Of a stretch of 64,000 bases of DNA, positions 2,805-48,911 are shown in pieces. Both the position numbers and the translations under genes were made by a program. A model generated the notes under the pieces. That model was not told the DNA's origin. It ran no database searches and saw only the letters and a list, made by a program, of their open reading frames with translations. The stretch spans positions 62,001-126,000 of the IMG/VR virus record IMGVR_UViG_3300033069_000905; one strand, 5' to 3'. The DNA is from an uncultured virus (IMG/VR IMGVR_UViG_3300033069_000905) (taxonomy: Duplodnaviria; Heunggongvirae; Uroviricota; Caudoviricetes). Position 1 is the first letter of the stretch. Every line of letters starts with the position of its first letter.

Positions 2805-2865
2805 TAAAAGCGTCCGTAAATAGGCTTACCCCTTATTGTATGGCGTAAGCTCTAGCTGTGCAAGA

Positions 2866-4017
2866 TTATGCCTGTACGACAGCACGGTACTGCGCTGTTG
2901 TAGGCGCAACGGCAAAAGTTAAGGTCGCTGTGTTGGTGGTCGGACGAGTAACTTCGCACTCTACGGTGTCCCAAGGTGTCGAAGCATTATACACTTCAAC
3001 CGATATGTCTTTGGTTCCCAAGTTGTGCGTAATCGTAATAGCGGTAGATGAGTTATCACCCACATCGACAGCGTACTTACGGACAACAACCGCAGTGTCA
3101 ATAGAGATACTGTCTGCGGCAACCGTGATGCCTGTACCCGAACCAACATCCAGTGTGTTACCTGTTTTGGTCAGACCAGAACCCGCAACAACAGAACCCG
3201 CACCAGAGAACTGCGCCCATGTTAGGGCTGTGCCCGAAGCACCGCCGACGATGATTGTTCCGTTGGTTGTGATCGTCCAGCCTGTATCAGCGTTCTGCGT
3301 ACCTTCTTCAACGAACACGAAGGCATTTGCAGTGAGTTCACCATCAGCATCGGCATCGGTAGCACGATCCCACACACCGTTAGCGCCGGAACCCAAAGTG
3401 CTAACAACGTAAATACCATTAGCAGAAGGTGTGCCGTGATCCTTTACCAGAATGCGATCAGAGCCAGCCAAGGTAACGCCGTCAATGGTATTCGGGCAAG
3501 CGGTCAACTGACCGCGTGTTGATGTGCCGCCTGAATTTGCGTAGGTACCTGCTGTCGCTGTGGTTGCTGCCCTGACTGAGCCTTTAACATCAAGACCCAT
3601 CGACAGATTATCAACGTAGGTCTTATTGACCGCATCCGTACCCGCCGAAGGGGCGAGCAAGTTAGTGATTTTTTGGGAGTTAAGAGAAACCGACGTTGTT
3701 GGGTTAGCCATTTGATCCAAACGGCTAGTACGCACTTGTGTATCGAAATCGGAAATCGTTGAGGCTAATTGCGTTCCTGTGTGGTTAGCACGGGCTAGCG
3801 GGTCAGTAGCTAGGTTAGCAAGTGGAATACCTGTTCGTTTGGTCGCATCCATCGACACCCAGATGGTGCCGTTGTAATATTCCATATCATGTGCTGTGGT
3901 ATTCGTGAAGATTTGACCTTCAACGGGGGAACCCGGTGCCGAAGCCAGCTTATGAACTAGCGTATTTTGTATTTCATTTTTGGTAAAGTCATAATTGACT
4001 AAAATCTTCTTTGCCAT
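2866..4017 (-). CDS. Tail fibre/structural protein
   Basis: KITNLLAPSAGTDAVNKTYVD neck motif; GLDVKGSVRAATT...IDGVTLAGSDRILVKD...NGIYVV...WDRATDAD domain; ITHNLGT C-terminal motif. Confidence 0.7.
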   Translation of the reverse strand: MAKKILVNYDFTKNEIQNTLVHKLASAPGSPVEGQIFTNTTAHDMEYYNGTIWVSMDATKRTGIPLANLATDPLARANHTGTQLASTISDFDTQVRTSRLDQMANPTTSVSLNSQKITNLLAPSAGTDAVNKTYVDNLSMGLDVKGSVRAATTATAGTYANSGGTSTRGQLTACPNTIDGVTLAGSDRILVKDHGTPSANGIYVVSTLGSGANGVWDRATDADADGELTANAFVFVEEGTQNADTGWTITTNGTIIVGGASGTALTWAQFSGAGSVVAGSGLTKTGNTLDVGSGTGITVAADSISIDTAVVVRKYAVDVGDNSSTAITITHNLGTKDISVEVYNASTPWDTVECEVTRPTTNTATLTFAVAPTTAQYRAVVQA

Positions 4018-4027
4018 GGTAAATCCC

Positions 4028-4582
4028 CTAGTTTAAATAAGCAGTCCCGCCAAACATTGCGCTAAAAGTGACATGAATTTCATTGCTTGACACGTACTTG
4101 AGTTCGCCTTCAACCTCATCACCGCTTGAGTCTATGATAGTAACAGACGGGTAACTACCTAAGCCGTGAACAATAATCCATGTGTCTGAAGCTATTGACT
4201 GCGTATGTGTATAGGATTCGCCCGACAAACCCGGAACATTTACCGTGACTGTTCCCGCACTGTTCGACGCAGATACACCCGAACCTGTGAAATTAATTGC
4301 AACAAGGGAGCTAACGAGCGTAGTCCCCTCGTCTTTGACGGTAACTACAGGGTTTCTCTCGGGGGTATAAATGCCCCCATCACTGCCGATGACGGATAGA
4401 TTGTTGGGATCGGTGGATAGTGATGCAGATGTTCCTGCATCCCCCTTATCACCTTTATCCCCTTTGATTCCCGGAATACCCCTTGGCCCTTGTTCTGCAT
4501 AAACAACAAGAGATGAGTCTTCTTCTTCAACAAAGACAACATCACGCGCCAGTGAAACAAGGACGGTTTCTTCGTTGGTCAT
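4028..4582 (-). CDS. Fibre protein with short collagen-like repeat
   Basis: GPRGIPGIKGDKGDKGDAG Gly-X-Y run; C-terminal WIIVHGLGSYPSVTIIDSSG domain. Confidence 0.65.
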   Translation of the reverse strand: MTNEETVLVSLARDVVFVEEEDSSLVVYAEQGPRGIPGIKGDKGDKGDAGTSASLSTDPNNLSVIGSDGGIYTPERNPVVTVKDEGTTLVSSLVAINFTGSGVSASNSAGTVTVNVPGLSGESYTHTQSIASDTWIIVHGLGSYPSVTIIDSSGDEVEGELKYVSSNEIHVTFSAMFGGTAYLN

Positions 4583-4590
4583 ACTGATCC

Positions 4591-4962
4591 TTACGGTAGA
4601 TCAGTGATTGTACGCGGGCCAGCGATGCTTCCGCGCATTAAAACTTCAGCGTCTTCTATTGTTCCCACAGGCCAGATCAATAAGTCCCACTGTGCAAAAT
4701 CAAAATCGTAAGACTCTGTTTCGGATCGTGGCACAGCAATGGAGATTCTGTTGGTGTCATCAAAGATTAGCTTGCCGTTCGTAGTACTCCAATCTGCATA
4801 AACAGGTTCATCACCCGCAGCAGAACGCAACTGTATGCGGCCAGCCTTCCCCGCAAGATCAATCGGGGTTTTAACACCCGCGTCGTCCTGAGAAAACCAG
4901 CGGAACGCCTTTTTATAGGCAGCACCGCGATAAATCGGAGGCAGTTTCACATTAAACGGCAT
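4591..4962 (-). CDS. Baseplate/fibre attachment protein (BppU-like N-terminal type)
   Basis: PIDLAGKAGRIQLR...WDLLI...LMRGSI pattern, common in the gene preceding fibre genes. Confidence 0.5.
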   Translation of the reverse strand: MPFNVKLPPIYRGAAYKKAFRWFSQDDAGVKTPIDLAGKAGRIQLRSAAGDEPVYADWSTTNGKLIFDDTNRISIAVPRSETESYDFDFAQWDLLIWPVGTIEDAEVLMRGSIAGPRTITDLP

Positions 4963-4967
4963 GGTTA

Positions 4968-5348
4968 TTAACCTTGGCTAGCCATAGCGTGAACTGTCAT
5001 GAAGGCTTTAACAGCACCCGAACCGCTAGTACGAACGGCACGCACAAAGTTAGGTGGAGTCTGCCAAGTCATCAAGAACCCTGTCGCCCCATTAGACCCA
5101 ACACTGGAATCCCATAGAACAATCCAAGCCGCATCTTTGTGGACTCGCCACTGGACTTGAACAACAGTGCCGCCCGGAACAGGATCAACTTGAAATGCCC
5201 CCGGCCATAGGGCATGGTAAGAATTATTAGAACTTGCGCCAATACCCGCTGCCGTGTCTAGGACGCATGCGGAAGGAACAGGATTAACTGCGGCTGAGTC
5301 CAGTGTAGCAAGACCCGCTAGGTTAGGTAAAACAATCGTATCGGCCAT
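4968..5348 (-). CDS. Hypothetical virion protein
   Basis: 126-aa ORF packed in the tail operon. Confidence 0.55.
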   Translation of the reverse strand: MADTIVLPNLAGLATLDSAAVNPVPSACVLDTAAGIGASSNNSYHALWPGAFQVDPVPGGTVVQVQWRVHKDAAWIVLWDSSVGSNGATGFLMTWQTPPNFVRAVRTSGSGAVKAFMTVHAMASQG

Positions 5349-5349
5349 A

Positions 5350-5577
5350 TCACACCTTGAATGAAGGGATTACGTTATCTGAGTCTTGCACTGACACCAC
5401 CGCGTTTCTTGAATCCAAATTAACAACTGAACCAAATGAAGCTGACCCTGCTTTTACTAGCTTTATTCCTGTTGCAGTTCTCACCATGGTTAGCGATCCT
5501 TGCGCACCTACAACTGTCCCCGGCGTGTTGTTTGCCGGTGGGGCTATCAGGTTACGAAGTGCCTCTAAGGGATTCAT
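5350..5577 (-). CDS. Small tail protein
   Basis: 75 aa; ATGA overlap with the upstream gene. Confidence 0.55.
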   Translation of the reverse strand: MNPLEALRNLIAPPANNTPGTVVGAQGSLTMVRTATGIKLVKAGSASFGSVVNLDSRNAVVSVQDSDNVIPSFKV

Positions 5578-5909
5578 GGAGATAAGTTTCCAACAAAGAA
5601 GTCAGTCGGTTTCAGCAAAGTTAATTCAGTAGTCAGCTTAGCATTCTGCACATGATGCTTGATGCCTGTTATTTTCGCATACCATGAGCTACCGAATAAT
5701 GTTTCTGTCACTTTAACTATCTGCCCTAAACGCAAGCCGGGACGAAACACCATCTCCACAGTAACAAGCTGACTGCCATGCGCCGAATCATCAAGCTCAT
5801 TTCTGCCGCGTTGAATGCATGCAGGTAGTTCAGAGAGAAGATTGCTGATAACCGCGTCATTGACACGGTGCCGACCTTCGCCACGGTAACAGCGGATAGA
5901 GTAGAACAT
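5574..5909 (-). CDS. Tail tip protein (hub C-terminal-like fragment)
   Basis: FRPGLRLGQIVKV...KITGIKH...TELTL resembles the C-terminal barrel of baseplate hubs. Confidence 0.5.
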   Translation of the reverse strand: MFYSIRCYRGEGRHRVNDAVISNLLSELPACIQRGRNELDDSAHGSQLVTVEMVFRPGLRLGQIVKVTETLFGSSWYAKITGIKHHVQNAKLTTELTLLKPTDFFVGNLSP

Positions 5910-6475
5910 TATGGATAGACTGGTGTAGCGATGCCGTAGAGAACCGCATGCACAGGCCAGCTAAAGACGGAGCCTGTTGGGGGAGCAGGAAGATTGCTGA
6001 ATTTACCAACCTGTGCGGTAGGTGAGTACTCAACAAAGACAAAAGCATAGGGGGGTTGTGCCGCAGGGTCGCCTGAGCCTACCCACGTGAGAAGTCGAGC
6101 TACCGTGGTGTTGGGGACGAAAGTAAACCCACCGCTTTGAAGATACAAAGCATTAAGTACGATCAAATTGGATGGGGCTGGCTTAGAGAAATTAGCAACA
6201 GGGGTAGAGAAGGATAGCCCCTCACGAACAATGTTATAACCAACCGAAAGACCCGGAACGTTGTGGCTAAAGCTACCCCCCGTAACGAAAGACCCCATGA
6301 TGGTCACGTTGATTGATTTGTAGATAAGTACGAAACAGTCATCGCCGGGGAAGTACTGAGAACGCCCACCATTTAAGCCATAAGGTCGGGAATCTATCTC
6401 CCCTTGGAGATGCCCCTCTCCCCCAGAGACACTACAGGATATGGTGGTTGTTACGGCATGTTGTTCTAGTGCCAT
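5909..6475 (-). CDS. Hypothetical tail tip protein
   Basis: 188-aa ORF in the tail operon with a 1-bp overlap. Confidence 0.55.
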   Translation of the reverse strand: MALEQHAVTTTISCSVSGGEGHLQGEIDSRPYGLNGGRSQYFPGDDCFVLIYKSINVTIMGSFVTGGSFSHNVPGLSVGYNIVREGLSFSTPVANFSKPAPSNLIVLNALYLQSGGFTFVPNTTVARLLTWVGSGDPAAQPPYAFVFVEYSPTAQVGKFSNLPAPPTGSVFSWPVHAVLYGIATPVYP

Positions 6476-6481
6476 GGTGGT

Positions 6482-8305
6482 CTACCTCAAGTAAGAGTTG
6501 AAAACCGTATCACGGACGCAAAGCTGTAGATGCGTTCCGCCCGGTGCCTTCAGTTTCCAAAGATGACAACGTGTGGTGTATTTTAACTTAAGCATACTGA
6601 ATCTAATGTTTAAATCGGATGTATAAAACGTCTTTGAGTAGTCTTGCATGATGATGCTACCCGCAGGTTCGGTGAGATACCCGTAACTCTGGATGGCACA
6701 CACAGGGTACCGTGCTGAACCTTGTGATCGAGTTATCTCTATAAGTTCCCACCCGAAATCTGGTGCTTGCCACTCATTAGGACGCCAATTTTCAATACCA
6801 AGGTACTCAAGTTCTACGTTTTTATTCGTGGTATATAGCTCAACGTTGTCCCGCCAAATAGCTGGGAAAACTCGAACAAAACCACCAGAGTAGGCTGTTC
6901 TACCATCGTCAAAATACCCTAAATCGCCCCCAACAGTTTCCACATCGAAGAACTCAATAACGTCAGCCACACCGATGTCTTGGAACGTCTTGACATAGAT
7001 GCTATCCGTCTTTTTGTTGGGTGAATGCCGCTCCTGCATGGACAGAATATCGTCAGAATCTAATAAAAAGTGGTCTGTCGTAGCATCTGAATACGTAGGA
7101 ACAGCAACAGGGTGCTTGTACCTAACTCTGATGTTACCTTCTGGCGTGGATTCAACGACACCGCCAACTGCTTCTGCAAGTAATTTCACTGAGTCTAGCG
7201 GGTATTGATTCTCCACACCGAAACGATAGGCGGGTAATCCCCAATCAAGAATCTCCCAAGACATATCGCCCGGTGGTGGGATGTAGCCAGAGCGATTTAT
7301 CGTGCTATCATAAACCAGAAGATTAGCAATTTCGTTCGCTGTCTTCGGTGTGTCTATCGTTATACCGATGATTTGTTTAGACTTTGCCCCCGTAAGCAGG
7401 GATGTTCTGGATAAGCCTCTAACAGTGGCGTGGGGGGCGGTTATATCTTTCCTGTCCATGGATCGACTGTCGACCACAAAGTAATAAATCTCGCCCTGAA
7501 TGTTCACATGGAATTCTTTGTTGGCTAAAAACTTTGGGAAATCAGCGTAGTTAGCCAGCGTAGCTTCACAAGAATAGGTGAAGTTTCCTTCATCCGCAGA
7601 TACCGTCATGTCTTTTACATAGACTAACTCGGAGTCAATAATGATGATAGGTTCTACAGGAATAATAGCAACACCCGTGACTAAGACAGACAAGTACTGC
7701 ACGTTTGCACGCTTAAATACCCTGTCTGTATCTTTCACTGAGTAATGCACCGATACCGACTTATACAACCTTGTGTAGTCGTAATAAGACACGGCATGGC
7801 TCACCGTGCAGTGGGCTAGTATCATGTACTGTGCGCTGTACCTCGCACTAACGCGAGTCCCCGTGAGGTAAGACAGGGGGTTGCTGGATACTACAGCGTC
7901 CCACCGTGAATAGCGAACACCGAACGAAACAGTCAGTCGAGACACCACTGGCCCCCATAGTGCCGCATAACTGGTCACCACAGGACTATACAAAGCGTTC
8001 TTCAGCGTCTTCCTACAAGCAACACGGTTGTAGGACGAATACAAAACGTCGCCGCTTTTGTTAACAGGAGAATAGAGCGCCCTATGAACTGTTTTTCTAA
8101 CAGAAAAGCGGACTAGCGCATTGTAACTTACGGGGGCACTTGCACTTACTCGTTCAGGGTAGCGCACGAACTTTCGCACGGACAGGCGCTTATCGTATAT
8201 CTGACTGGGGGTTTCTAGGTAATTCCAATCCTCGCTAACGTCCCATAACGTTGCGGGTTCTCCTACAGGAATGAGGATTAAGGAATCAACCGTGCTGGTG
8301 GTCAT
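6482..8305 (-). CDS. Baseplate hub/Tal-like tail protein
   Basis: 607 aa; LAEAVGGVVESTPEGNIRVRYK segment typical of hub proteins; position downstream of the tape measure. Confidence 0.5.
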   Translation of the reverse strand: MTTSTVDSLILIPVGEPATLWDVSEDWNYLETPSQIYDKRLSVRKFVRYPERVSASAPVSYNALVRFSVRKTVHRALYSPVNKSGDVLYSSYNRVACRKTLKNALYSPVVTSYAALWGPVVSRLTVSFGVRYSRWDAVVSSNPLSYLTGTRVSARYSAQYMILAHCTVSHAVSYYDYTRLYKSVSVHYSVKDTDRVFKRANVQYLSVLVTGVAIIPVEPIIIIDSELVYVKDMTVSADEGNFTYSCEATLANYADFPKFLANKEFHVNIQGEIYYFVVDSRSMDRKDITAPHATVRGLSRTSLLTGAKSKQIIGITIDTPKTANEIANLLVYDSTINRSGYIPPPGDMSWEILDWGLPAYRFGVENQYPLDSVKLLAEAVGGVVESTPEGNIRVRYKHPVAVPTYSDATTDHFLLDSDDILSMQERHSPNKKTDSIYVKTFQDIGVADVIEFFDVETVGGDLGYFDDGRTAYSGGFVRVFPAIWRDNVELYTTNKNVELEYLGIENWRPNEWQAPDFGWELIEITRSQGSARYPVCAIQSYGYLTEPAGSIIMQDYSKTFYTSDLNIRFSMLKLKYTTRCHLWKLKAPGGTHLQLCVRDTVFNSYLR

Positions 8306-8306
8306 A

Positions 8307-10055
8307 TTAGTACGTCAATTTAAGTCGTAGCGAGCTAGTGATGTTTTCAGGCAAGCCACTTGGCACCTGCCCAGACTTTATCACACGCTTCACCCATATA
8401 GGAACGCATTCGCCCGGAAGCAATGTGGACACCACAGCCGCTTCTAACTCAGAGTTGTGAAACGCGAAAGTTATTCCAACCGGAGCCGTGGTTTGATTCG
8501 CTATGGTTGGGTTAGCTGTCCCGTCCCTGTCATTAGTAATGATGCCCATCTGGATGTAGTTATCGTTGGCTGTTGAGCCTGTCAGGTAGTCGCAGTTATA
8601 GTCTGACCATAGTTTCAGTGTGGTAATGGTTTGTGTGGGGTGTGTGTTAACAAGGAAAAAACACTTGTACTCAATATCCCCAAGAAGCAGCTTGGACGCC
8701 GTTGCTTGGTCAAGAAGGGAGTACGCGGAGTAGTTGTACTTTACAACCTCAACGCCATTGTAATAAGGATCGTATAGCAGCCTGTTCGTTGTCACAGCTA
8801 CAGTACCACCATTAGTCGTGTACAGTGTGTAGACACCAGACGCTGTAGCTAGAACCTCTGCACCGAAATTAACCCCGTCACCTGATGCAGATAGGTAGGT
8901 GTATCTGTCAGGGTCTACGGCAGGGTACAGCCCTTGTACCAAAGGAACACCCGTGGGTGAATTTGTTCGTTGCTTTAGCGTTATGTCACTTAAAGAAACC
9001 AGACCCCCCAAACCGATAACGCGCACCCCTGTAATTTTTGACATGGGTAAAGCGTTAACTGGGGGTGGTTGTAGTTGTGTAGTCAAAGCGCCCCCAAGAC
9101 CAGACGCTGACATGTAGCGTCTTAGGTAAGAAGGGGAAAAGTCGAAAGTAAGGGCTACAGTTCCAGCGTAGGTCTTGTTGACCAAAGCCACGATTACAGT
9201 AAATACGAAAGCACTGCCGTCTTGGGCTACAGCCACAATATAGGGATAAGGACTGCTGGCGTCCGTCGCGCTAGTGTAGCTTGTTGCTGTGAATTGATAC
9301 TTCGTATCAGGTAGGTTTATTAGAGCGTTTGGCGGAACAACATACACAGGAGAACCAACCGTGCCGTCGTTTTTAACTATCATGACAGGGGTGCCTAAAT
9401 CAGCGTCTATCCCTGTTGCTGAATTGCTGGCAACCGCAACATAAATGTCGCCAGTTCCAACATCAACAGTCTGCTTCATCCACGAGTTTCCTATGGAGAA
9501 ACCGCTTGTTACGAGAGGAACCAACCCTGTTATTGGCGCGGCTACCGATACGCTCCTATTAAACGAAGACCAGTAGGCATTGTCAAACAAAGAGACTCCC
9601 GTATCCCTGTTCACCGTGCTGCTGTACACTGTTGCCAGAGGACTTGTTGCTGCGAAATTTATGCTTAGTGTTTCGGTTAACGACTGTTCAATACGCGCCA
9701 AAGGTGCAGTAGCAGTTTGGACAAAAGCAGCATAGCCAGAAGCGTTTGGGTTTATGCGCATCAGACAAACGGCACCTGCTCTGCTGTAAGCTATAACGCT
9801 GTAGGTATTTAAATTAGATGAGTAGGGCGTTGAAGGAACAGCAAAGACTGAATCTGACGACACTTGGGTTAGCATGTCCCCCGCTGTATCGGAAATCCAA
9901 AAGCGTATGGAATTTTCTGTGGGGAGATACGCCGCTTTAAGTTTCGGTGTTTGCGTAAATCCACGTAAAAACAACGGTTCCACAAAAGGCATCGTTGTGA
10001 ACTCTAAGGCGACTTGACTTCCAGCGAGTAATGTTGGTGCTATAGCCATTACCAT
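8307..10055 (-). CDS. Tail tip structural protein
   Basis: 582 aa; C-terminal EYKCFFLVN...VPIWVKRVI is paralogous to the 14859..15842 protein (KWRKMFYKL...VPLWIKRVV). Confidence 0.55.
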   Translation of the reverse strand: MVMAIAPTLLAGSQVALEFTTMPFVEPLFLRGFTQTPKLKAAYLPTENSIRFWISDTAGDMLTQVSSDSVFAVPSTPYSSNLNTYSVIAYSRAGAVCLMRINPNASGYAAFVQTATAPLARIEQSLTETLSINFAATSPLATVYSSTVNRDTGVSLFDNAYWSSFNRSVSVAAPITGLVPLVTSGFSIGNSWMKQTVDVGTGDIYVAVASNSATGIDADLGTPVMIVKNDGTVGSPVYVVPPNALINLPDTKYQFTATSYTSATDASSPYPYIVAVAQDGSAFVFTVIVALVNKTYAGTVALTFDFSPSYLRRYMSASGLGGALTTQLQPPPVNALPMSKITGVRVIGLGGLVSLSDITLKQRTNSPTGVPLVQGLYPAVDPDRYTYLSASGDGVNFGAEVLATASGVYTLYTTNGGTVAVTTNRLLYDPYYNGVEVVKYNYSAYSLLDQATASKLLLGDIEYKCFFLVNTHPTQTITTLKLWSDYNCDYLTGSTANDNYIQMGIITNDRDGTANPTIANQTTAPVGITFAFHNSELEAAVVSTLLPGECVPIWVKRVIKSGQVPSGLPENITSSLRLKLTY

Positions 10056-31914: not shown

Positions 31915-32694
31915 TTACTTGCAACGCTTAGGCTTACGTTTTTTATTAGAAAACACCACTTCAGGGGATTCACCGTCTAAGATTTTAACTCTAACCGCTG
32001 TTAATGTTTGATTCGTTCTACGCGCAATTTCTGAAAGATTCAACATCTCAACACCGGATTCTGTGGGGAAAGGATAAAACTTAGGGACATCGGGGTTACG
32101 ATGTGTCGGAGTGGTAACTATTTTCTCATCTGACCAACCCAAAGATTTACGGTGCCATAGCGTCTTCACAGGAATGTTTATTTCTTCTGCCCATTCAATC
32201 ATGCATTGTGTTTTACCGTCGTAAGTAACTAAGACGTTGCTCTTACGATTACGCGCACGCTCCTTAGCGTTAGTATGGACTTTATCGCCCAAGGCTTTTT
32301 CTAGGGGCATTCCTGAGTGGTGTCGCCCAATTAGTGTCGACACGCCCATACCTTTTTCCCTAGCCCACTCAGCAACGTTCTTTGTTTCACCGTTATGCGT
32401 GAGCGCAATGCTGGTGCGCCTATTTTGGGCTTGCTGTTTCTTTGTCGCCCACTGACAGTTAGCCGGTTCGTAATTTCCGTTAACGTCAAGGCGCTCTAGG
32501 GAAGTTCCCACAGGCTTTATCCCCATATCTACAACGAAGTTATCCGCAGATTCTAGCCATCGCTCGCACACAATGATTCCACGACCACCGTAGCTAAGGT
32601 AATTTGCGCTGCTAGGAACCGTGCATCTGTCTCGCATGCTTCGCCAACTTCCAAAAGTGTAAACAATTTGCATAAAATCACCCGTGACTAGCAT
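31915..32694 (-). mobile_element. Free-standing HNH homing endonuclease
   Basis: SWRSMRDRC...YGGRGIIVCERW...SLERLDVNGNYEPANCQWAT, plus repeated DNA-binding modules (GxT...EWA). Confidence 0.88.
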
Positions 32695-32719
32695 AGATCA
32701 TCCTCTTTAAAAAAAACCT

Positions 32720-41880: not shown

Positions 41881-42103
41881 GGGTTTCCTTTGGGGGATGA
41901 TACTCCCCTTTATCATCCACACAAAATAAAGTATCTGCTTCAGCCAGTGCACGCCAACGATCCCCCAAGTCACATGCGGCCATGAACTGCATGTGCTTAC
42001 GATCTAATAGACCAATGTTCCGATTACTTTGTAAGGCTTCTAAAAACGTCTTTTTGTCCCTTGTGATAGTCGTCCCAATCATCACCGCCACAATTTCTTT
42101 CAT
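41870..42103 (-). CDS. Hypothetical protein
   Basis: 77 aa; ATGA overlap with the GIY-YIG gene. Confidence 0.5.
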   Translation of the reverse strand: MKEIVAVMIGTTITRDKKTFLEALQSNRNIGLLDRKHMQFMAACDLGDRWRALAEADTLFCVDDKGEYHPPKETHDA

Positions 42104-42909
42104 GTCACACCTTTAGCTTTTTCCCTATTTCTTAGAGTGCTAGCACGCTTCCTCGCTTTTTGCTCTTCTGTAAGGGTCAATGATTTATTTTCATCCCTGC
42201 GTTTAGCGTAGTACGCTAAATGAGAAATCCTCAACTTTTCACGTGTTTCTTCTGAAACTGGTGGGCGTGCCGCCCTAGCCGCGTCAAGCTGCGCTTTTCG
42301 TTCGGCTGTGAACTCTAGTTTTTTATGTGACTCACTGATTTTAGCTTTCACAGACGGGCTATGTGCCTTCCCTAAGTTAGCAGCACGTAATTTGGCTTTT
42401 GTTTCGTCTGTAGTAACCCTCCCTTTTTGAGCTAAACTAATCTTAGCCCTGACTTCATCAGGCAACTTTTTACCCTTGTTTCTGGCGTGGCAATCTAATA
42501 AGTTCTTAAGAGAAACAGCGGAAAAACACTTACGTAGTTTATCCCTTGTGGCCTGAGAAACAGGCTTACGGTACTTTGCCGATTCCCTGAGTTTATTTCG
42601 TGTAGCGTCAGAGTGGATTAATCCGTAAGCACCCTCGCCGCCTTCCGTTAAATTTGTTAAAACCTTGCCGCTTACAGTTCGATACTCGGCAATAAGCTGC
42701 TTCTCTTTTTTACACGCATCTCCCCAACTCAAACCACTTTGCAATATGTTGACCATGTAGCCATGCTTTGCTACGGTACGGTGCCAATGCGGGTTTCTGG
42801 CGTAGACACTCCAAGGGCGACCACGCGCACCGATACCCACATAAAACACAACGTCATCTGTTATCCTACTGTGTGTGTATAACATAACATTGTCTTTTTT
42901 AGTTGTCAT
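42100..42909 (-). mobile_element. Free-standing GIY-YIG homing endonuclease with NUMOD3 repeats
   Basis: YTH...FYVGIG...R...EKQLI...LTNLTEGGEG followed by repeated SxETRxKLR/KIS motifs. Confidence 0.85.
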
Positions 42910-42940
42910 TTATTCCTACGATTTAGTAAGTTACCCCCTA

Positions 42941-45900
42941 TTATAACTTAAGCTTGGTGAGCGCAGACCACGAGGGGCCAATTTCCACATCACAGGAAAA
43001 CTTCACCTTCGGTTTCCAATGCACTTGTTCAAAGGGAAGATTCTCCATAATCTCTTTGTACCGCTTCGCGTAATACTCCACGTTGTCTTCGGGAAGATAA
43101 AACACCAACGCATCATGACACATCATCACCACCGGGGCTTTCTTTGTCAAGCCTTCACGATGCATAATTGATGTTGCCCACAAAGACATGTCAGACAAGC
43201 AGCCTTGCACGGGCGAGTTGACTGCTCTACGCAGTTCCTTGGACGCTACCTGCTTGTCTGAGCTATTCAACAACGGTAAATGCCTAATTCGACCTAGCGG
43301 GGAGTGCGTGTAGCCGTACTTCTTGGCGAAGTCCTTGTACCTATCGTGCCATGGGATAAGGTATTTATAAGTTTCGAAAAATAAATCACGGTTAATTGTA
43401 GCCTCTTCCAAGGTCATAACGTGCCTGTAGGCTATCTCTGCATAGTCCCTGTAACCCTCTGCGCCCATGCCGTAGCAGTTTGACACAAGAACACCCGAGC
43501 AAGTGAATCTTCGGCGGGGGCCAGCGTTCAGAATATCATATACCCTAACTCTTTCAGTTTTAAAGCCAAGGCTTCGTAATTCTTCTGCTTCTTTGCGATT
43601 ACGTTCTTGCATCGCTCGATAATCTGTTCCCCTGACAACCCCGCGTACACCAGTTCTCTCGTCTTCTCCAAGCTGTAAGGGCTTTTCCATTCTTTCCACG
43701 GGGTCACGATCCCCATAAAAGTAAACGTAGGTGTCGTTATCCCCGTAGTCGGCGCATAACCAAGAGTCTCTAGGCGTTGTTGCAACACTCTCCAATTTTT
43801 GCACTTCTTGGCGATTGAATCCTTGGCTCGCTGAATTATCTGCCCTCCCGTTAAACCCGCTTTGGCAAACGCTTGTGTTCTTCGGGGATGGTAAGGACTT
43901 TTCCAATCCGCCCAAAACATCTTCACGCCTTGATACGTCAGGAAGACGTTGTGATCCAAATTGCGATGGTTCTCTGAACTTGAGACTAATCGAAGATTTT
44001 CTGGTGAGTAGTGTCCTTTGTTGTCTATCCTGTCGAACTCCAAACCCTTGTAACTCCCCACAGGGAATGTTTCCAACGCCCAACGAATAAAATGCTCTCG
44101 TGATTCGAACAAGCACTTTATTCCCTTCCCTTTGTAGTCTTTTGACTGCTTGTGTGTATCTCTGTTGCAACGCTGCACCATACAGTCGTAACGTGCCCCT
44201 AAAACTTGGGCGCGTTTGTCTCCGTGATACTTGTCCCTTCTTGCACATTTCCCACCAAGGGTATGCCCCAAGTATAAGTCCCTTGCTCGAACTTGATGAA
44301 AGGTTCCGCACAGAGAGCAATCCATTCGCACTATGTCCGAATAGAACCGTGGAGACTCCCCCTTTGCTAACGTCATCGTACCGAAGGATCGGCTTTCCAG
44401 AAACGCTTGCAGTTCTTGCAAGCTTGGCACCTTCTTTAGCGGCTTGCTGCAATTCGATTTTTCTTCCGTCTTCTGTCCAGACGTTATGGTTTGGTGTTGC
44501 GCTAACTCCGTCCCATTCAAAGACTTCGAACCACCCTTGATGAATAATACCGTCATGATTAACCCACTCCAATCCGTCCCACAGTTTATGGTGTGCTTCT
44601 ACGTCTTGGATTTTAATATTGCCATTGCTAGTTAAGCAAACACTATTTGAAGGTAAAGCCAAGCCGAAGTTAGCTCCCTTTGCCGCCTGACGCTTATCCT
44701 CGTAAATCTTAGCTAGGGCGGGGTTTTCATTGTCTTTGTAGGACATGAACGTTTCAAAATCAATCTTGGCAAGACCCGCCCCCGTAACCGCATGCAAGTC
44801 AAGGTCGTTGGCATAGGCGTTCAACATCACAGGGTCACCGCTTAAATCTGCGGCTATGCGTAATTCCCCTTGCCCGTAGTCGATATTGCACACCACAAAT
44901 CCGGGTGGGGCAATATACGCCCTGCGTAACGGCTTTGCCCACTTCGTCTTCTTGGGCACTGTATTGTGCACTACCATCCCGTTAGCAATGAATGAATGGC
45001 TACCCGCGATAGTTAAATCAAAAGTTTCTTCTGGTGTTATGGCTTCAATGCTTACGATGCAGTCTTTACTGAATCCCCCCACCAAGGCTTGACAGGCATG
45101 GTAAGGGCTACTGTCGGGTTCAACCCTCTCCGCAGCCTCGCGGCTAACGTAGCTGGTTTCATGTTCATCTGAACAGCCCACTCGATTAGGTGCTTTCTCT
45201 CCCCCATAAATTCGATGTAGACACTGGCCCTGCGATTCCGCGCCTGTTCCGAATCTGTCGCCCACCTGCAATTGTCTAAGCTGTAATTCCCATTCGTATC
45301 CAACCTGTCTAATGATTTCTTCTGTGGCTTCTCCCCCATGTCTTTCAGAAATATCTCGAATGACTCTTTCCAAGAAGAACAGACTATGATCCCTCTCCCC
45401 CCATAGTCCTTGTAGTCTTTGTCGTTCGGGTTGTAACATCTGGACAGCATGTGCTGCCATGACCAATAGGTAGATGATGTCTTCCCTCTGCGGTTGTGAC
45501 CATGTGTTGTTAGCCTGTCCCGCCTGTAACAACCACAAGACATGCTCGGAGTCGTTACAGTCAGTGACCCCGCCCGAAGCTCCCGAATGGTTCCACATTC
45601 GCACTGGCAGACGTATCTCCGATGGCCGTCCAGAATCGTACCCAAGTCCTGCACGACTGTCCAACGCCCTATTTTCATCCCCGCCACCACGCGCTGCTTC
45701 TTCATAGTATCTCCACACCGAAGCCCCAACTTCTAGTTTGTCGGCTTTAACAAACCCAATATCAGTTAACCACGGGTGATTAGTTGTGCATTCAACAGTT
45801 GCCCCTGATTTAGTGGTAATCCGCAATAACGGTTGTACACCGTTACGATAAGCACCAATCACGGGCTTCCACTCACCAGTATGGGTTAGTACCGTAAATC

Positions 45901-48466
45901 CTTCCCCGCGCTCTACGCCCTGAACCACAGAGAGTATAGTGTGTTCTCCCTTTTCGGTCAAGACTGTAGTGCTACCTTCTAAACATTGAAGCGCCGGGTC
46001 TGTGATTGAGATGCGGCCTGTGTTGTGCGTTACCACGCCCCCCGACACATGCGAGTAGTTATCCGCCACTGAAACACCAAAGGTAGGCTCAGGCTCTTGG
46101 TCTTCAATGCAAACAACGGATGCTTCATAAAAATTATTGGGGTACGTCCATTGCGGGTCTTTATTCCACCGTTTGCCTGTTCTGGCGTCACGCACACTTT
46201 CCCTAGCCACACCAAGCATCTTGCCAAGAACACCGTCGCTTAATGTTGACGCACGAATTAGCTGCACAGACTCCCATGTTAGTTTTGCCTGTGATCCGCG
46301 TGTCTTATTAAGCCGCCCTTGCTGCGAAGCATCGTCACGATTGGTTTTCCCAGAACCCCAAGCTAGATTTCCAACCGTGTTATCCCAAGCAATGCCGTTC
46401 AAGTGCATAACTTCGGTATGTCCTTCGGGGTTTGGTATGAAGGCTAACGCCACTAATCTATGCAGAGAAAAATCTCTGCGGTCTTCTCCCCTGACCTGAG
46501 AACCGTTCCGCGCAAATTGAACTTTTAAATGCCCCCACTTACCCTTCTGATGCGCCTTTATAATCTTACCGCTGTAGTGTGACTTGACGCGCCCCCAACT
46601 AGACACTGAGTAGCCCCAATCAGGAACGGGCTTCCATACCTCAACGTCTGAATGGACAGTAACGGAGTCCCCGACTTTCAAATCTTCGGCATTAACCCAC
46701 GCACCATTAGAAAGGTAGGGGTGGTTATTCGTCGTCCGTAGCGACAAACCGTTAGACAGAGTTACCTTTTTAATCGGCTTAATACCGTTGGGTATAAAAT
46801 CAAAAACAGCTTTCGGTTCCCCTGTGTGAGAGATAACTAAGTCATTGATCTTTACGTCTTCAATAGGCAAGTAACCGCGATTGGTTAGTATTAGCTCACC
46901 AGAAGGAAAGCATACAGCACCAGCGTCACGCTCATCGCTTTCCAACGCACCCCGATACAATGAATACCCTGCATGAAAACGGTCGTCATACCGAAGATGC
47001 TTCATGAACCCCACAACGTAAGTGCTCAGGGTTTTTGAAATGTCCTTGTACTCTTTCACCACTTTGATGAAGGGTGCAGCAACAGGATTCTTCTCGAACT
47101 TCAAGAAGTGTTCCATCGCCGTTGATGGTTTGGGTAGTCCTGTCTTTTTGTCGGGCTTCGGGGTAAACATTACGGGCTTTAACTTCATGCCCAATTTTGA
47201 AAAGAAGAAGCACCCCAACATAGCCGCTCGGGACAAGTCCAAGTTGTCTCTGTACTTGGCTTTTATTCTCCCCGGCAGCATGGCTAGGGCACGTACAGCG
47301 TTGTTTTTTGTGTCAGCCTGTAGCTCACGCTTGAATTTATTATAATAAACCGTGTCGACCAGAACACCGACTTGCTCAACTTCTTCATACGCCCGTGCGG
47401 CAGGGTGCAGGATTTTTATGTAAAAGTTAGCCAACATGGGAAGGTCGTGCACATCACCCACCCCGTCTAAGGTTGCAGGGTAGCGGTAAGTAACTAGCTC
47501 GTGCCGCATCTTCTCCGCAGCTTCTAGGCAGACTGTCGTATCGTATCCGCAGTACGGAAGAAGAACATCAGGCGGAACGTCTTGGGGGCGTGCTATGTCG
47601 TAGTTCTGGTTTAGCTCTAGTTCATACCCCCCGTAGATCGTGTAAACGTGAGCGTGCGTTTTCAAACTATTAGAACGGTTTTCGTCCAGCAGACTCCCCA
47701 CCAACAGGGTGTCCATCTTGAAGTTGGTGCAGTGAATCCCCCACTTCTCGTGCAGCCAGTTTAGATCGTACTTTAGGTTCGCCCCCTTCATCGAAACTTG
47801 GGGGTGAGTAAGGATGTAGTTGACTTGAAGCCAGATTAGTTCTTCACGGCACGTAGCCGCGCCCTTCGGGTTTCTGGGTTGAAAGTCTTGATCGAAATGG
47901 ATGACGCGGGATGATTTGGTATCCAGCGAGATTTGAAAGGTGACAATCCATGTGGACTTGTCATACGCAACCAGACCCGTGGTTTCAAGGTCTATTGCTA
48001 CGTCCACCATAGTCTTTTTTGACGCTACCAAGGCGTCTAGCTGCTCTATCACGCCCGTTAAGTCCTGCACCCACTGGAAATCCAAAGCGGGGGGCTTGAC
48101 ACTCCCTGTAAGCAGCTTTCTTACCGCAAGTTTTATGTCCCCGCACAAGTCAATCGACAGGGAGTAGTCAACTGACCTGATACTGAAGGAATACGAGACG
48201 AACAAAGACGCCCCCGATGGGAGCGCCTTTTCTACACCGCGCATTGAACCTATCGTTCGGTTCTTGGGGACGATGCCTTGCTTTTTTAGCTCATCTAGGG
48301 GGTGATTTCCTAATGCTATAACTACATCACCCACAGCCGACTCAGGAAGTTCCCCTTCCTTGAATCCGATGTTCCTACACGTTACACCCGTTCCCTTCAA
48401 CAGAGGCGGCAACATCTTTGACTGGTTGGGGTCTATTCCCTTTGACCACAGTATAAGCTTTCCCAT
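42941..48466 (-). CDS. polA: DNA polymerase family A precursor (UDG-like N-terminus, 3'-5' exonuclease) with three inteins; mature protein about 809 aa
   Basis: Exo DLETTG, NLKYD, YCGYD; after splicing GAV|TGRISITDPALQ|TVP, motif A DYGQGELR, motif B RQAAKGANFGL|CYG, NSPVQG, motif C CHDA. Confidence 0.95.
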   Translation of the reverse strand: MGKLILWSKGIDPNQSKMLPPLLKGTGVTCRNIGFKEGELPESAVGDVVIALGNHPLDELKKQGIVPKNRTIGSMRGVEKALPSGASLFVSYSFSIRSVDYSLSIDLCGDIKLAVRKLLTGSVKPPALDFQWVQDLTGVIEQLDALVASKKTMVDVAIDLETTGLVAYDKSTWIVTFQISLDTKSSRVIHFDQDFQPRNPKGAATCREELIWLQVNYILTHPQVSMKGANLKYDLNWLHEKWGIHCTNFKMDTLLVGSLLDENRSNSLKTHAHVYTIYGGYELELNQNYDIARPQDVPPDVLLPYCGYDTTVCLEAAEKMRHELVTYRYPATLDGVGDVHDLPMLANFYIKILHPAARAYEEVEQVGVLVDTVYYNKFKRELQADTKNNAVRALAMLPGRIKAKYRDNLDLSRAAMLGCFFFSKLGMKLKPVMFTPKPDKKTGLPKPSTAMEHFLKFEKNPVAAPFIKVVKEYKDISKTLSTYVVGFMKHLRYDDRFHAGYSLYRGALESDERDAGAVCFPSGELILTNRGYLPIEDVKINDLVISHTGEPKAVFDFIPNGIKPIKKVTLSNGLSLRTTNNHPYLSNGAWVNAEDLKVGDSVTVHSDVEVWKPVPDWGYSVSSWGRVKSHYSGKIIKAHQKGKWGHLKVQFARNGSQVRGEDRRDFSLHRLVALAFIPNPEGHTEVMHLNGIAWDNTVGNLAWGSGKTNRDDASQQGRLNKTRGSQAKLTWESVQLIRASTLSDGVLGKMLGVARESVRDARTGKRWNKDPQWTYPNNFYEASVVCIEDQEPEPTFGVSVADNYSHVSGGVVTHNTGRISITDPALQCLEGSTTVLTEKGEHTILSVVQGVERGEGFTVLTHTGEWKPVIGAYRNGVQPLLRITTKSGATVECTTNHPWLTDIGFVKADKLEVGASVWRYYEEAARGGGDENRALDSRAGLGYDSGRPSEIRLPVRMWNHSGASGGVTDCNDSEHVLWLLQAGQANNTWSQPQREDIIYLLVMAAHAVQMLQPERQRLQGLWGERDHSLFFLERVIRDISERHGGEATEEIIRQVGYEWELQLRQLQVGDRFGTGAESQGQCLHRIYGGEKAPNRVGCSDEHETSYVSREAAERVEPDSSPYHACQALVGGFSKDCIVSIEAITPEETFDLTIAGSHSFIANGMVVHNTVPKKTKWAKPLRRAYIAPPGFVVCNIDYGQGELRIAADLSGDPVMLNAYANDLDLHAVTGAGLAKIDFETFMSYKDNENPALAKIYEDKRQAAKGANFGLALPSNSVCLTSNGNIKIQDVEAHHKLWDGLEWVNHDGIIHQGWFEVFEWDGVSATPNHNVWTEDGRKIELQQAAKEGAKLARTASVSGKPILRYDDVSKGGVSTVLFGHSANGLLSVRNLSSSSSKGLILGAYPWWEMCKKGQVSRRQTRPSFRGTLRLYGAALQQRYTQAVKRLQREGNKVLVRITRAFYSLGVGNIPCGELQGFGVRQDRQQRTLLTRKSSISLKFREPSQFGSQRLPDVSRREDVLGGLEKSLPSPKNTSVCQSGFNGRADNSASQGFNRQEVQKLESVATTPRDSWLCADYGDNDTYVYFYGDRDPVERMEKPLQLGEDERTGVRGVVRGTDYRAMQERNRKEAEELRSLGFKTERVRVYDILNAGPRRRFTCSGVLVSNCYGMGAEGYRDYAEIAYRHVMTLEEATINRDLFFETYKYLIPWHDRYKDFAKKYGYTHSPLGRIRHLPLLNSSDKQVASKELRRAVNSPVQGCLSDMSLWATSIMHREGLTKKAPVVMMCHDALVFYLPEDNVEYYAKRYKEIMENLPFEQVHWKPKVKFSCDVEIGPSWSALTKLKL
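43478..44659 (-). mobile_element. Intein 3 (394 aa), Ala1 / SN|C type; endonuclease encoded in an alternative frame
   Basis: ALPSNSVCLT...ATPNH...VYDILNAGPRRRFTCSGVLVSN|CYG, inserted in polymerase motif B. Confidence 0.88.
43528..44556 (-). CDS. HNH endonuclease nested in the +1 frame of intein 3
   Basis: CSLCG...RYDCMVQRC...YKGKGIKC...EFDRIDNKGHYSPENLRLVSSSEN, plus duplicated C-terminal modules; true start uncertain (ATG 44556 or GTG 44430). Confidence 0.85.
   Translation of the reverse strand: MTVLFIKGGSKSLNGTELAQHQTITSGQKTEEKSNCSKPLKKVPSLQELQAFLESRSFGTMTLAKGESPRFYSDIVRMDCSLCGTFHQVRARDLYLGHTLGGKCARRDKYHGDKRAQVLGARYDCMVQRCNRDTHKQSKDYKGKGIKCLFESREHFIRWALETFPVGSYKGLEFDRIDNKGHYSPENLRLVSSSENHRNLDHNVFLTYQGVKMFWADWKSPYHPRRTQAFAKAGLTGGQIIQRAKDSIAKKCKNWRVLQQRLETLGYAPTTGITTPTFTFMGIVTPWKEWKSPYSLEKTRELVYAGLSGEQIIERCKNVIAKKQKNYEALALKLKELGYMIF
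44963..45985 (-). mobile_element. Intein 2 (341 aa); endonuclease encoded in an alternative frame
   Basis: CLEGSTTVLT...CTTNHPW...TFDLTIAGSHSFIANGMVVHN|T. Confidence 0.92.
45052..45705 (-). CDS. HNH endonuclease nested in the +1 frame of intein 2 (217 aa)
   Basis: GGAG-N5-ATG start; GRWTV..CQCECG..SCGC..HG..TYWSWQHMLSRC..YGGRGIIVC..SLDRLDTNGNYSLDNCRWAT. Confidence 0.9.
   Translation of the reverse strand: MKKQRVVAGMKIGRWTVVQDLGTILDGHRRYVCQCECGTIRELRAGSLTVTTPSMSCGCYRRDRLTTHGHNRRGKTSSTYWSWQHMLSRCYNPNDKDYKDYGGRGIIVCSSWKESFEIFLKDMGEKPQKKSLDRLDTNGNYSLDNCRWATDSEQARNRRASVYIEFMGERKHLIEWAVQMNMKPATLAARLRRGLNPTVALTMPVKPWWGDSVKTAS
46022..46912 (-). mobile_element. Intein 1 (297 aa) with in-frame NUMOD4-HNH endonuclease
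   Basis: CFPSGELILT...TTNNHPY...VVTHN|T; internal WKPVPDWGYSVSSWGRVKS and HRLVALAFIPNP...VMHLNG..DN..NLAW. Confidence 0.92.
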
Positions 48467-48911
48467 CCACAGCCTTCCATTGAACGTCTTTGGTGGTTTT
48501 TTTAAATACAGCTTTGGTGTAAGGCTTTAATAGTTTTCGTGCTATGCCGATGCTAACATCGTGTGCCGCTATCCGCAGCATCCTGACGCCCCCTTTACCC
48601 GCGTCAAGAATGCGCAAGTCTAGCAAACAATCCCCGTAAGAGGAAGACTTATCTTCCTTGGTACAACTCAGGTAGACGAACAGCCGCCCTTTAAGATGCA
48701 CCAGCACCGCTGCACTCCCTTCTGCGACAAAGGAACCTTCTATTTTAGCGCGTACATGCAAGTCAGCGTCTTCACCCGCAGCACTGCTTAGAGGGAGTTT
48801 AAACAGCCGTCCACCAGTGAGCAAAGTGCTATTATCACGCGAATGCATGTCCACGGTAATCTGAAGAACATCAGCCAGCGAAGTTATTTCATCGTTGAAT
48901 TCTTTTCTCAT
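48375..48911 (-). CDS. Hypothetical protein
   Basis: 178 aa; ATGA coupling to the upstream gene. Confidence 0.5.
   Translation of the reverse strand: MRKEFNDEITSLADVLQITVDMHSRDNSTLLTGGRLFKLPLSSAAGEDADLHVRAKIEGSFVAEGSAAVLVHLKGRLFVYLSCTKEDKSSSYGDCLLDLRILDAGKGGVRMLRIAAHDVSIGIARKLLKPYTKAVFKKTTKDVQWKAVDGKAYTVVKGNRPQPVKDVAASVEGNGCNV

Follow-up and report, generated by a model that had tools for sequence, protein, structure and literature searches.

A putative HNH-family homing endonuclease gene read in the +1 frame of an intein in a family A DNA polymerase gene of an uncultured virus

Inteins in which the homing endonuclease is encoded in a different reading frame from the one that holds the splicing domains were described in actinobacteriophages by Gosselin, Arsenault & Gogarten (bioRxiv 10.1101/2025.01.02.630785), who proposed that such elements originate from a free-standing gene invading an intein. 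A cyanobacterial dnaX intein with an out-of-frame LAGLIDADG endonuclease in a +2 open reading frame (ORF) was reported by Phillips, DeSimone & Gogarten (bioRxiv 10.64898/2026.09.14.751524). Both preprints credit Gorbalenya 1998 for alternative-frame endonucleases in inteins, the dnaX paper as the first proposal. The present analysis concerns a 64,000-nt stretch of DNA (hereafter the window; positions 62,001 to 126,000 of the 131,953-bp IMG/VR virus record IMGVR_UViG_3300033069_000905, from an uncultured virus of the Caudoviricetes) in which a family A DNA polymerase gene carries three inteins. The second of them, intein 2, is very probably a mini-intein in whose +1 frame an HNH homing endonuclease gene of the free-standing type occupies the place usually taken by the endonuclease domain. 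Numbering is in window coordinates unless stated otherwise.

The inteins of Gosselin et al. resemble intein 2 in that the splicing frame is open, the endonuclease gene, in another frame, is placed between the splicing blocks, the region read in frame has no structure that can be recognised and the nucleases are related to free-standing phage endonucleases. On the same strand they describe an endonuclease VII-like gene read in 'frame 3'; the HNH inteins are in frame and the others are antisense (LAGLIDADG, Vsr-like), whereas the gene described here belongs to the phrog_374 HNH family, is read in +1 and is located in a polymerase of family A from uncultivated phages. The evidence given for the dnaX intein matches that assembled here (a disordered in-frame region, a confident fold in the other frame, Shine-Dalgarno (SD) motifs, and an omega low in the endonuclease frame and high in the host frame, corresponding to the pN/pS values below), but its host gene is bacterial, the nuclease belongs to the LAGLIDADG family and the frame is termed +2. 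The ShiLan domain, a hidden out-of-frame HNH endonuclease in a phage methylase gene (Arsenault, Gosselin & Gogarten, Genes 2025, PMC11855218), shares with intein 2 the out-of-frame HNH gene and the stop-free host frame. It has no splicing domains, its insert is thought to be retained in the host protein and no ribosome-binding site was detected, whereas the HNH gene of the window lies within an intact intein, with an SD-like motif before its start. The fractured genes of Dassa et al. 2009 likewise place a free-standing-type endonuclease at the intein endonuclease position, with the 3' end of the nuclease gene overlapping the C-terminal intein part (by 6-69 bp there, by ~90 nt in intein 2); in that case the host frame is broken, the halves splice in trans and the nucleases are of the GIY-YIG and Vsr-like types, whereas in the window the frame is open and the intein contiguous.

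Since alternative-frame inteins have been published, the layout found here is not a new category. The original prediction for this locus, made from the sequence, had left its novelty open, and the architecture proves to have been described already in the 2025-26 preprints. No description of an intein containing an out-of-frame HNH gene emerged from full-text literature searches, though the supplements of the preprints may list such cases.

Splicing domain and +1 gene of intein 2

The polymerase ORF is uninterrupted over 1841 aa and matches the Pfam families PF00476 (E 5e-45) and PF01612, a 3'-5' exonuclease (E 2.5e-10); its exteins total 816 aa once the three inteins are subtracted (for coordinates see Table 2). 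Intein 1 lies upstream of intein 2, separated from it by 12 extein residues. The two share the host gene, the Hint domain and a nuclease of the HNH superfamily, but the nuclease of intein 1 is translated within the intein, with NUMOD4 at residues 609-641 and HNH_3 at residues 668-708, both in frame as predicted originally. Intein 2 is inserted at ...ITDPALQ/TVPKK... (the slash marks the junction). It starts with CLEGSTT, so that the nucleophile Cys1 provides the N-terminal Cys or Ser of a class 1 intein, and it ends with ETFDLTI...NGMVVHN followed by Thr at +1 (TVPK), i.e. with the C-terminal HN and subsequent Cys, Ser or Thr. The segment ECTTNHPW contains a TxxH motif, which we take to be intein block B; its T and H columns are invariant in a 7-sequence alignment, in which the C-terminal lobe shows the conserved pattern AGF..ETFDLTI..SHSF.ANG.VVHN. 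The canonical ends claimed for intein 2 are thus all present. Over the entire 341 aa the Pfam matches were solely of Hint type, namely Intein_splicing (PF14890, E 1.6e-10) and PT-HINT (E 7.4e-4).

The polymerase-frame product of intein 2 was modelled with AlphaFold2 (AF2) from the same 7-sequence alignment. The pLDDT (predicted local distance difference test) score, averaged over 10-residue blocks, was 92-96 over residues 1-90 and 68-97 over residues 281-341, and the spacer between them (residues 95-280) scored below 50. Comparison of the model with the PDB gave 39 matches at E<=1e-3, mini-inteins with the spacer looped out, among them 6frg, the mini-intein of Ssp DnaB (E 5.4e-7), and 1mi8, with the highest TMt of 0.82. 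In the predicted structure residues 1-94 and 281-341 together make up the Hint fold, i.e. the lobes fold as a mini-intein. Intein 2 probably splices, given that its motifs are intact and that the frame of an essential gene stays open across it. Its centre had been described in the original prediction as free of motifs and stops, and residues 95-280 indeed contain no family match and 0 stops.

The +1 ORF spans intein 2 residues 94-311, from the ATG at 45705 to the stop at 45054-45052, and its start is preceded by GGAG (45714-45711) and a 5-nt gap, so the coordinates given earlier for a complete 217-aa HNH gene with a GGAG-N5-ATG start hold. The ORF had also been said to end where the C-terminal splicing region begins; it does run to that region, but its last ~30 codons overlap the conserved, folded intein residues 281-311. 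Among the PHROGs its product matches phrog_374 'HNH endonuclease' (E 9.9e-64) and phrog_3377 (HNH endonuclease, E 7.1e-48), and weakly a family named endonuclease VII (E 1.3e-3). Profile searches of the two frames therefore gave Hint-type families in the polymerase frame and HNH PHROGs in +1.

A protein search returned 287 homologs of the +1 protein at E<=1e-3, mostly stand-alone proteins of ~200-230 aa with identity not exceeding 46 %; the +1 protein itself was absent among the best 120 of these 287 matches. None of 97 longer homologs of the family carried a Hint or intein Pfam domain, which is a weak negative. By tblastn the family was detected in 1033 phage records, and the 60 matches listed were stand-alone genes, several of them annotated as HNH endonuclease. 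All 8 columns that are invariant across a 73-sequence family alignment are retained in the window protein, whose AF2 model, based on that alignment, reached a mean pLDDT of 91.8. Three free-standing paralogs are encoded in the same record (G000), at its positions 93915-94697, 129300-129947 and 130299-130982. SD-like purine-rich motifs were present 3-8 nt before a start codon in 5/5 distinct sequences of the intein-2 type (see below). Within the element, neither promoter-like sites (3 vs 1.7 +/- 1.5 in shuffles) nor terminator-like sites (1 vs 1.4) exceeded chance.

Stop avoidance and selection in the two frames

The intein alignment was used to search viral and metagenome contigs for relatives of intein 2. 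Another IMG/VR contig, L007, agrees with the window at every position over 13,023 bp. Four further distinct sequences occupy the same polymerase site (...DPA[LVF]Q/C...HN/T[VI]PK): L008 (= L048), L016, L049 and L050, each combining an open host frame with a +1 ORF that scores E 1e-60 to 1e-76 against a hidden Markov model of the family. The +1 ORF is accordingly intact in 5/5 distinct sequences of this type, although that of L050 is shortened (154-181 aa) and devoid of the N-terminal Cys-rich part. In three other contigs (L030, L053, L054) a related Hint domain is accompanied by an in-frame LAGLIDADG domain. One candidate relative, L023, was dropped for want of homology across the element: its match connects the end of one intein with the beginning of another, in a different host gene.

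When a nuclease gene lies in +1, each host codon begins with the wobble base of a nuclease codon and is completed by the first two bases of the next, so a host-frame stop requires a T-ending codon followed by a codon beginning with AA, AG or GA. NNT and NNC are always synonymous in the standard genetic code; consequently, each host-frame stop can be avoided without altering the nuclease protein, and the observed pattern matches this expectation. As a null model, synonymous codons were shuffled within the ORF (5000 shuffles per ORF) and host-frame stops were counted. A second set was based on stop-to-stop open frames with 2000 shuffles per sequence. The results are given in Table 1, which includes the +1 ORFs of intein 3 and of other inteins introduced in the next section.

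Table 1. Host-frame stops and T-ending codons in +1 ORFs embedded in inteins, compared with synonymous-codon shuffles
ORF	Host-frame stops	Shuffle mean	Stop-free shuffles	T-ending before AA/AG/GA
Window intein 2, ORF	0	9.6	0/5000	0/60
L008, ORF	0	11.55	0/5000	0/58
Window intein 3, ORF	0	15.2	0/5000	0/94
Window intein 2 (= L007), stop-to-stop	0	10.4	0/2000	0/61
L008, stop-to-stop	0	12.2	0/2000	0/59
L016, stop-to-stop	0	8.1	0/2000	0/59
L049, stop-to-stop	0	6.9	0/2000	0/56
L050, stop-to-stop	0	5.1	1/2000	0/49
Window intein 3, stop-to-stop	0	15.8	0/2000	0/97
L009 intein 3, stop-to-stop	0	12.6	0/2000	0/86
L019:3083-3829, DUF559 (Vsr-like)	0	13.6		0/73
L028:3077-3814, DUF559 (Vsr-like)	0	10.0		0/69
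L046:2078-2746, DUF559 (Vsr-like)	0	10.3		0/58
L051:2496-3341, LAGLIDADG_2	0	12.8		0/76

The absence of any stop-free shuffle for intein 2 agrees with the chance of ~3e-5 estimated earlier for the open frame. Before codons of other kinds, T-ending codons made up 25-28 % in the three ORFs of the first set and 17-29 % in the seven embedded ORFs of the intein-2 and intein-3 types in the second set. The third frame of the embedded copies contains 8-17 stops.

In the relative frame that embedded copies keep open, the three paralogs from the same record have 33, 18 and 31 stops, with T-ending codons in 33/76, 18/62 and 31/58 of the AA/AG/GA contexts. Free-standing homologs from the same loci contain 29 (L012), 58 (L013), 42 (L059) and 10 stops (a short ORF in L008) in that frame. 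Taken together, the seven free-standing relatives show 10-58 stops there and 24-53 % T in those contexts, and in 7/7 the +1-equivalent frame has more stops than the other frame (3-30). In the free-standing paralogs T-ending codons were also observed to be commoner before AA/AG/GA (29-53 %) than elsewhere (19-27 %), which means that off-frame stops are enriched in the very frame from which the embedded copies exclude them.

Selection was examined frame by frame. Between the window and L008, 95/212 residues are identical in the HNH frame (score 447) and 65/210 in the spacer frame (score 193), and the nucleotide differences at HNH codon positions 1, 2 and 3 number 82, 84 and 122. The splicing lobes are identical at 59/93 (N-terminal) and 20/28 (C-terminal) residues. 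Among all 10 pairs of the five distinct sequences, amino-acid identity was 34-44 % in the HNH frame vs 18-30 % in the spacer frame. The ratio of nonsynonymous to synonymous proportions of differences (pN/pS, Nei-Gojobori proportions) was 0.51-0.73 in the HNH frame vs 0.95-1.18 in the spacer (polymerase) frame in 10/10 pairs; these values serve for comparison only, since the HNH-frame pS approaches saturation (0.64-0.81) and the frames depend on each other. By these measures the HNH frame is under purifying selection and the spacer is not.

Intein 3, other +1 arrangements and a split sister allele

The original prediction recognized overprinting in intein 2, which stands, and overlooked the same layout in intein 3 of the same gene. 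The +1 ORF of intein 3 belongs to the same HNH family (phrog_374, E 1e-23), and a homolog is overprinted in intein 3 of another contig, L009. The start signals of these two intein-3 ORFs are less evident than those of the intein-2 type, and the start codon in the window intein is uncertain, with candidates at L007 positions 7430, 7556 and 7610. The C-terminal part of the window ORF contains a repeat of a ~55-aa helical module (WADWKSPYHPRR... / WKEWKSPYSLEK...), which is absent from the L009 homolog. The N boundary of the intein is ambiguous: the uninterrupted L008 sequence reads FGLLYGMG, the window (43478-44659) FGL-ALPSNSV-CLTSNG...VSN/CYGMG and L009 (~6800-8000) FG-CLLGLSY-CITDKG...VSN/CLYGMS. 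Judged by extein length, intein 3 may start 7 codons before the Cys of CLTSNG, in which case its first residue would be Ala in the window and Cys in L009.

Similarity to the Hint N-block led to further inteins on other viral and metagenome contigs, where the host genes are helicase-like or of other kinds. Four of them contain +1 ORFs of the DUF559 (Vsr-like) or LAGLIDADG_2 type with the same stop avoidance (Table 1). All sense-strand cases examined are +1, i.e. 11/11 (5 of the intein-2 type, 2 of the intein-3 type and these 4), even though the free-standing relatives contain more stops in this relative frame than in the other; +1 placement may be a rule tied to wobble-only stop avoidance.

Table 2. 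Features of the polymerase locus and an unconstrained control, in window coordinates
Feature	Position	Strand	Basis or remark
Family A DNA polymerase precursor gene, 1841 aa, three inteins	42941..48466	-	ORF and Pfam
Intein 1, 297 aa, polymerase residues 519-815	46022..46912	-	canonical, in-frame NUMOD4 + HNH_3
Intein 2, 341 aa, polymerase residues 828-1168	44963..45985	-	splicing motifs and Pfam
Intein 2 N-terminal splicing lobe, intein residues 1-94	45704..45985	-	pLDDT, identity to L008
Intein 2 polymerase-frame spacer, intein residues 95-280	45146..45703	-	stop-free, no family match, no predicted structure
Intein 2 C-terminal splicing lobe, intein residues 281-341	44963..45145	-	residues 281-311 also read in +1 by the HNH ORF tail
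+1-frame HNH-family putative homing endonuclease gene, 217 aa	45052..45705	-	ATG 45705, stop 45054-45052; phrog_374
GGAG Shine-Dalgarno-like motif, 5 nt before the HNH ATG	45711..45714	-	sequence; presumed function
Intein 3, 387 aa from the Cys of CLTSNG, polymerase residues 1277-1663	43478..44638	-	same out-of-frame layout
+1 ORF in intein 3, 342 aa from the first ATG	43528..44556	-	same HNH family, phrog_374 E 1e-23
Free-standing HNH paralog, stop-to-stop open frame (= G000:C1:93915-94697)	31915..32697	-	unconstrained control

At the intein-2 site L009 (to which L010 is identical here) carries an element of 433 nt vs 1023 nt in the window, and the difference of 590 nt equals 2 mod 3. The endonuclease gene is missing and the polymerase is encoded by two ORFs, 4510-6294 and 6287-8344, so that the host gene is broken within the intein, in contrast to the continuous ORF of the window. 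The first ORF terminates directly after ...FMVRGTNE; the second opens with MNSDYEVSKKAGFKESKLVGIKRVDPQETYDLTI...VVHN/TIPKH and has GAGGGGG upstream, and the two overlap at ATGAATAG. The ATG of the second ORF lies within the host codons AAT GAA and that of the nuclease within TAT GAA (window) or GAT GAA (L008), i.e. the starts share both codon register (xAT GAA) and alignment position. In the C-terminal half, host-frame homology returns within ~5 codons of that ATG. Further along the second ORF, intein 3 retains its overprinted +1 HNH ORF at 6897-7652.

The shared start position and the missing nuclease body imply that one deletion would fuse the translation signals of the nuclease to the C-terminal intein half, and by the sequences compared such a deletion would convert a cis-splicing intein to a split intein in one step. 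The arrangement in L009/L010 corresponds to the step in the model of Dassa et al. 2009 at which nuclease loss leaves adjacent split halves. The polarity between the split and overprinted forms was not settled by a tree of 9 Hint N-domains, which was a star, with L009 45-52 % identical to all overprinted forms. That overprinted inteins are the direct precursors of naturally split inteins, together with a frame rule of wobble-only stop avoidance, is a tentative proposal about which we lean towards doubt.

Several observations concern the surroundings of the inteins. A 269-aa ORF at 42100-42909 (minus strand) adjoins the polymerase gene downstream and matches phrog_314 'homing endonuclease' (E 3.5e-19); it is, judged by this match, a putative further free-standing endonuclease gene beside the intein-laden polymerase gene. 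In L008 the polymerase (2809-7863) lacks intein 3, and its exonuclease region contains an additional, different intein that shows LAGLIDADG-like motifs; an ATPase-like gene next to the polymerase gene (L008:9889-11940) contains an intein with an in-frame HNH motif. Contigs of two runs, X7 and X8, from two other studies differ from the window at six positions in 44849-44864 and are identical to it over the rest of 44800-46200. The six substitutions fall in consecutive third-codon positions; the codons concerned, E-L-R-I-A-A of DYGQGELRIAADL, belong to the polymerase and are located ~100 nt downstream of the point where intein 2 is inserted, in a region that is presumably Pol I motif A. This patch could be a short conversion patch or an altered nuclease target. 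Megablast of the polymerase gene against phage records gave 0 matches, hence there is no near-identical phage record among them.

Proposed mechanism, alternatives and significance

In the proposed mechanism, ribosomes translating the polymerase frame would cross the nuclease gene out of frame and produce ~190 residues of unstructured spacer between the two lobes. The lobes would then associate as a Hint domain, excise the 341-residue insert and join ...DPALQ to TVPK.... The polymerase is essential, so a stop in its frame would be lethal. The nuclease would be a separate product, most likely initiated internally on the polymerase mRNA at the SD motif and ATG of its gene. It would presumably cut intein-less polymerase alleles, whereupon repair would copy the intein and the nuclease gene together. 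The view of intein 2 as a dual-coding element, put forward in the original prediction, is supported by the exclusion of stops, the purifying selection confined to +1, the unstructured spacer, the SD-like motifs, the absence of indels in independent assemblies and the conserved layout.

Several points weigh against this reading. The +1 ORF gave no match in Pfam, the HNH models included, even at E<=10, and that of intein 3 matched HNH_3 at E 0.17. Foldseek of the HNH model against the PDB returned 0 matches at E<=1e-3. A wide structural search had as its top match the HNH restriction enzyme PacI (3m7k_A) with Z 6.2, below the secure level (root-mean-square deviation 3.1 over 81 aligned residues, HNH model residues 67-162). 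The alignment depth was unequal, 7 sequences for the spacer model vs 73 for the HNH model; a shallow alignment could lower the confidence of the spacer, though the splicing lobes were modelled confidently from the same 7 rows. To this must be added the comparative nature of the pN/pS values. Both open frames, their selection signatures, the predicted folds and the conservation of the layout are direct observations, from which we infer the translation start, splicing, cleavage and homing. Finally, the mechanism does not account for the first arrival of a ~200-codon gene without a host-frame stop.

The +1 ORF might be a relic, a former homing endonuclease gene whose product is no longer made or active, in an intein that persists by vertical descent, and open merely because little time has elapsed. 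The shortened ORF of L050 and the loss of the entire nuclease gene in L009/L010 fit such a history, but the ORF is intact in 5/5 distinct sequences that share just 34-44 % HNH-frame identity, pN/pS is below 1 in 10/10 pairs and all 8 family-invariant columns are kept. A relic is improbable because a dead ORF would gain stops over such divergence, as the 8-17 stops of the third frame illustrate. A programmed +1 ribosomal frameshift, yielding a fusion of the N-extein, the N-terminal intein lobe and HNH with no start of its own, would fit the fact that both overprinted ORFs of the polymerase and all other sense-strand cases are +1, and the +1 frame is indeed open from 9 codons upstream of the ATG. 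The shift would nevertheless have to occur within this 27-nt window, the SD-like motif and start codon are present in all five relatives despite differing flanks, and at the same position in L009 a start codon opens an independent ORF. In addition, no conserved RNA structure was found at the nuclease start, where the consensus was weak (-8 kcal/mol) and the covariation term positive (+0.96). Frameshifting is therefore very improbable.

That the spacer itself is a functional domain, both frames being selected over the whole overlap, is less probable still. In its favour are ~30 codons at the 3' end of the overlap (residues 281-311), which in the polymerase frame show conservation and a confident fold; over residues 95-280, in contrast, pLDDT is below 50, no family matches, pN/pS is ~1 and the 18-30 % identity is accounted for by the overlap alone. 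The displacement of an in-frame HNH domain by two compensating indel errors, named in the original prediction as a possible refutation, has its a priori possibility in its favour and a negligible probability. The L007 contig is identical over 13,023 bp, and no insertion or deletion over the stretch was found in contigs of 4 runs from 4 studies, one run being possibly a source of this DNA (3 runs cover the stretch in one piece, the fourth 28/30 bins). The same frame relation recurs in four diverged relatives and in intein 3, and sequencing error cannot yield stop avoidance at wobble positions. A group I or II intron is unlikely: 0 Rfam matches at E<=1 were found in 42500-48800, and the stop-free host frame speaks for translation of the region.

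What is new at this locus, beside the published alternative-frame inteins, is the presence of the phrog_374 endonuclease family in out-of-frame inteins, the occurrence of two overprinted inteins in one gene beside a canonical one, and the split sister allele of L009, which has no endonuclease gene and whose C-half begins at the codon position of the nuclease start. The clean wobble-position signature is a further point of interest.

Intein 2 represents dual coding under two constraints, in which an essential host gene keeps more than 200 junk codons stop-free and selection at the protein level acts in the other frame alone. Gene callers that take the long polymerase ORF will overlook nuclease genes of this kind. 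A widespread free-standing HNH family joins the nucleases known to colonise inteins out of frame, which supports their acquisition by invasion. From the split sister allele a concrete and testable path to the split inteins found in nature, themselves useful tools for protein ligation, can be proposed.

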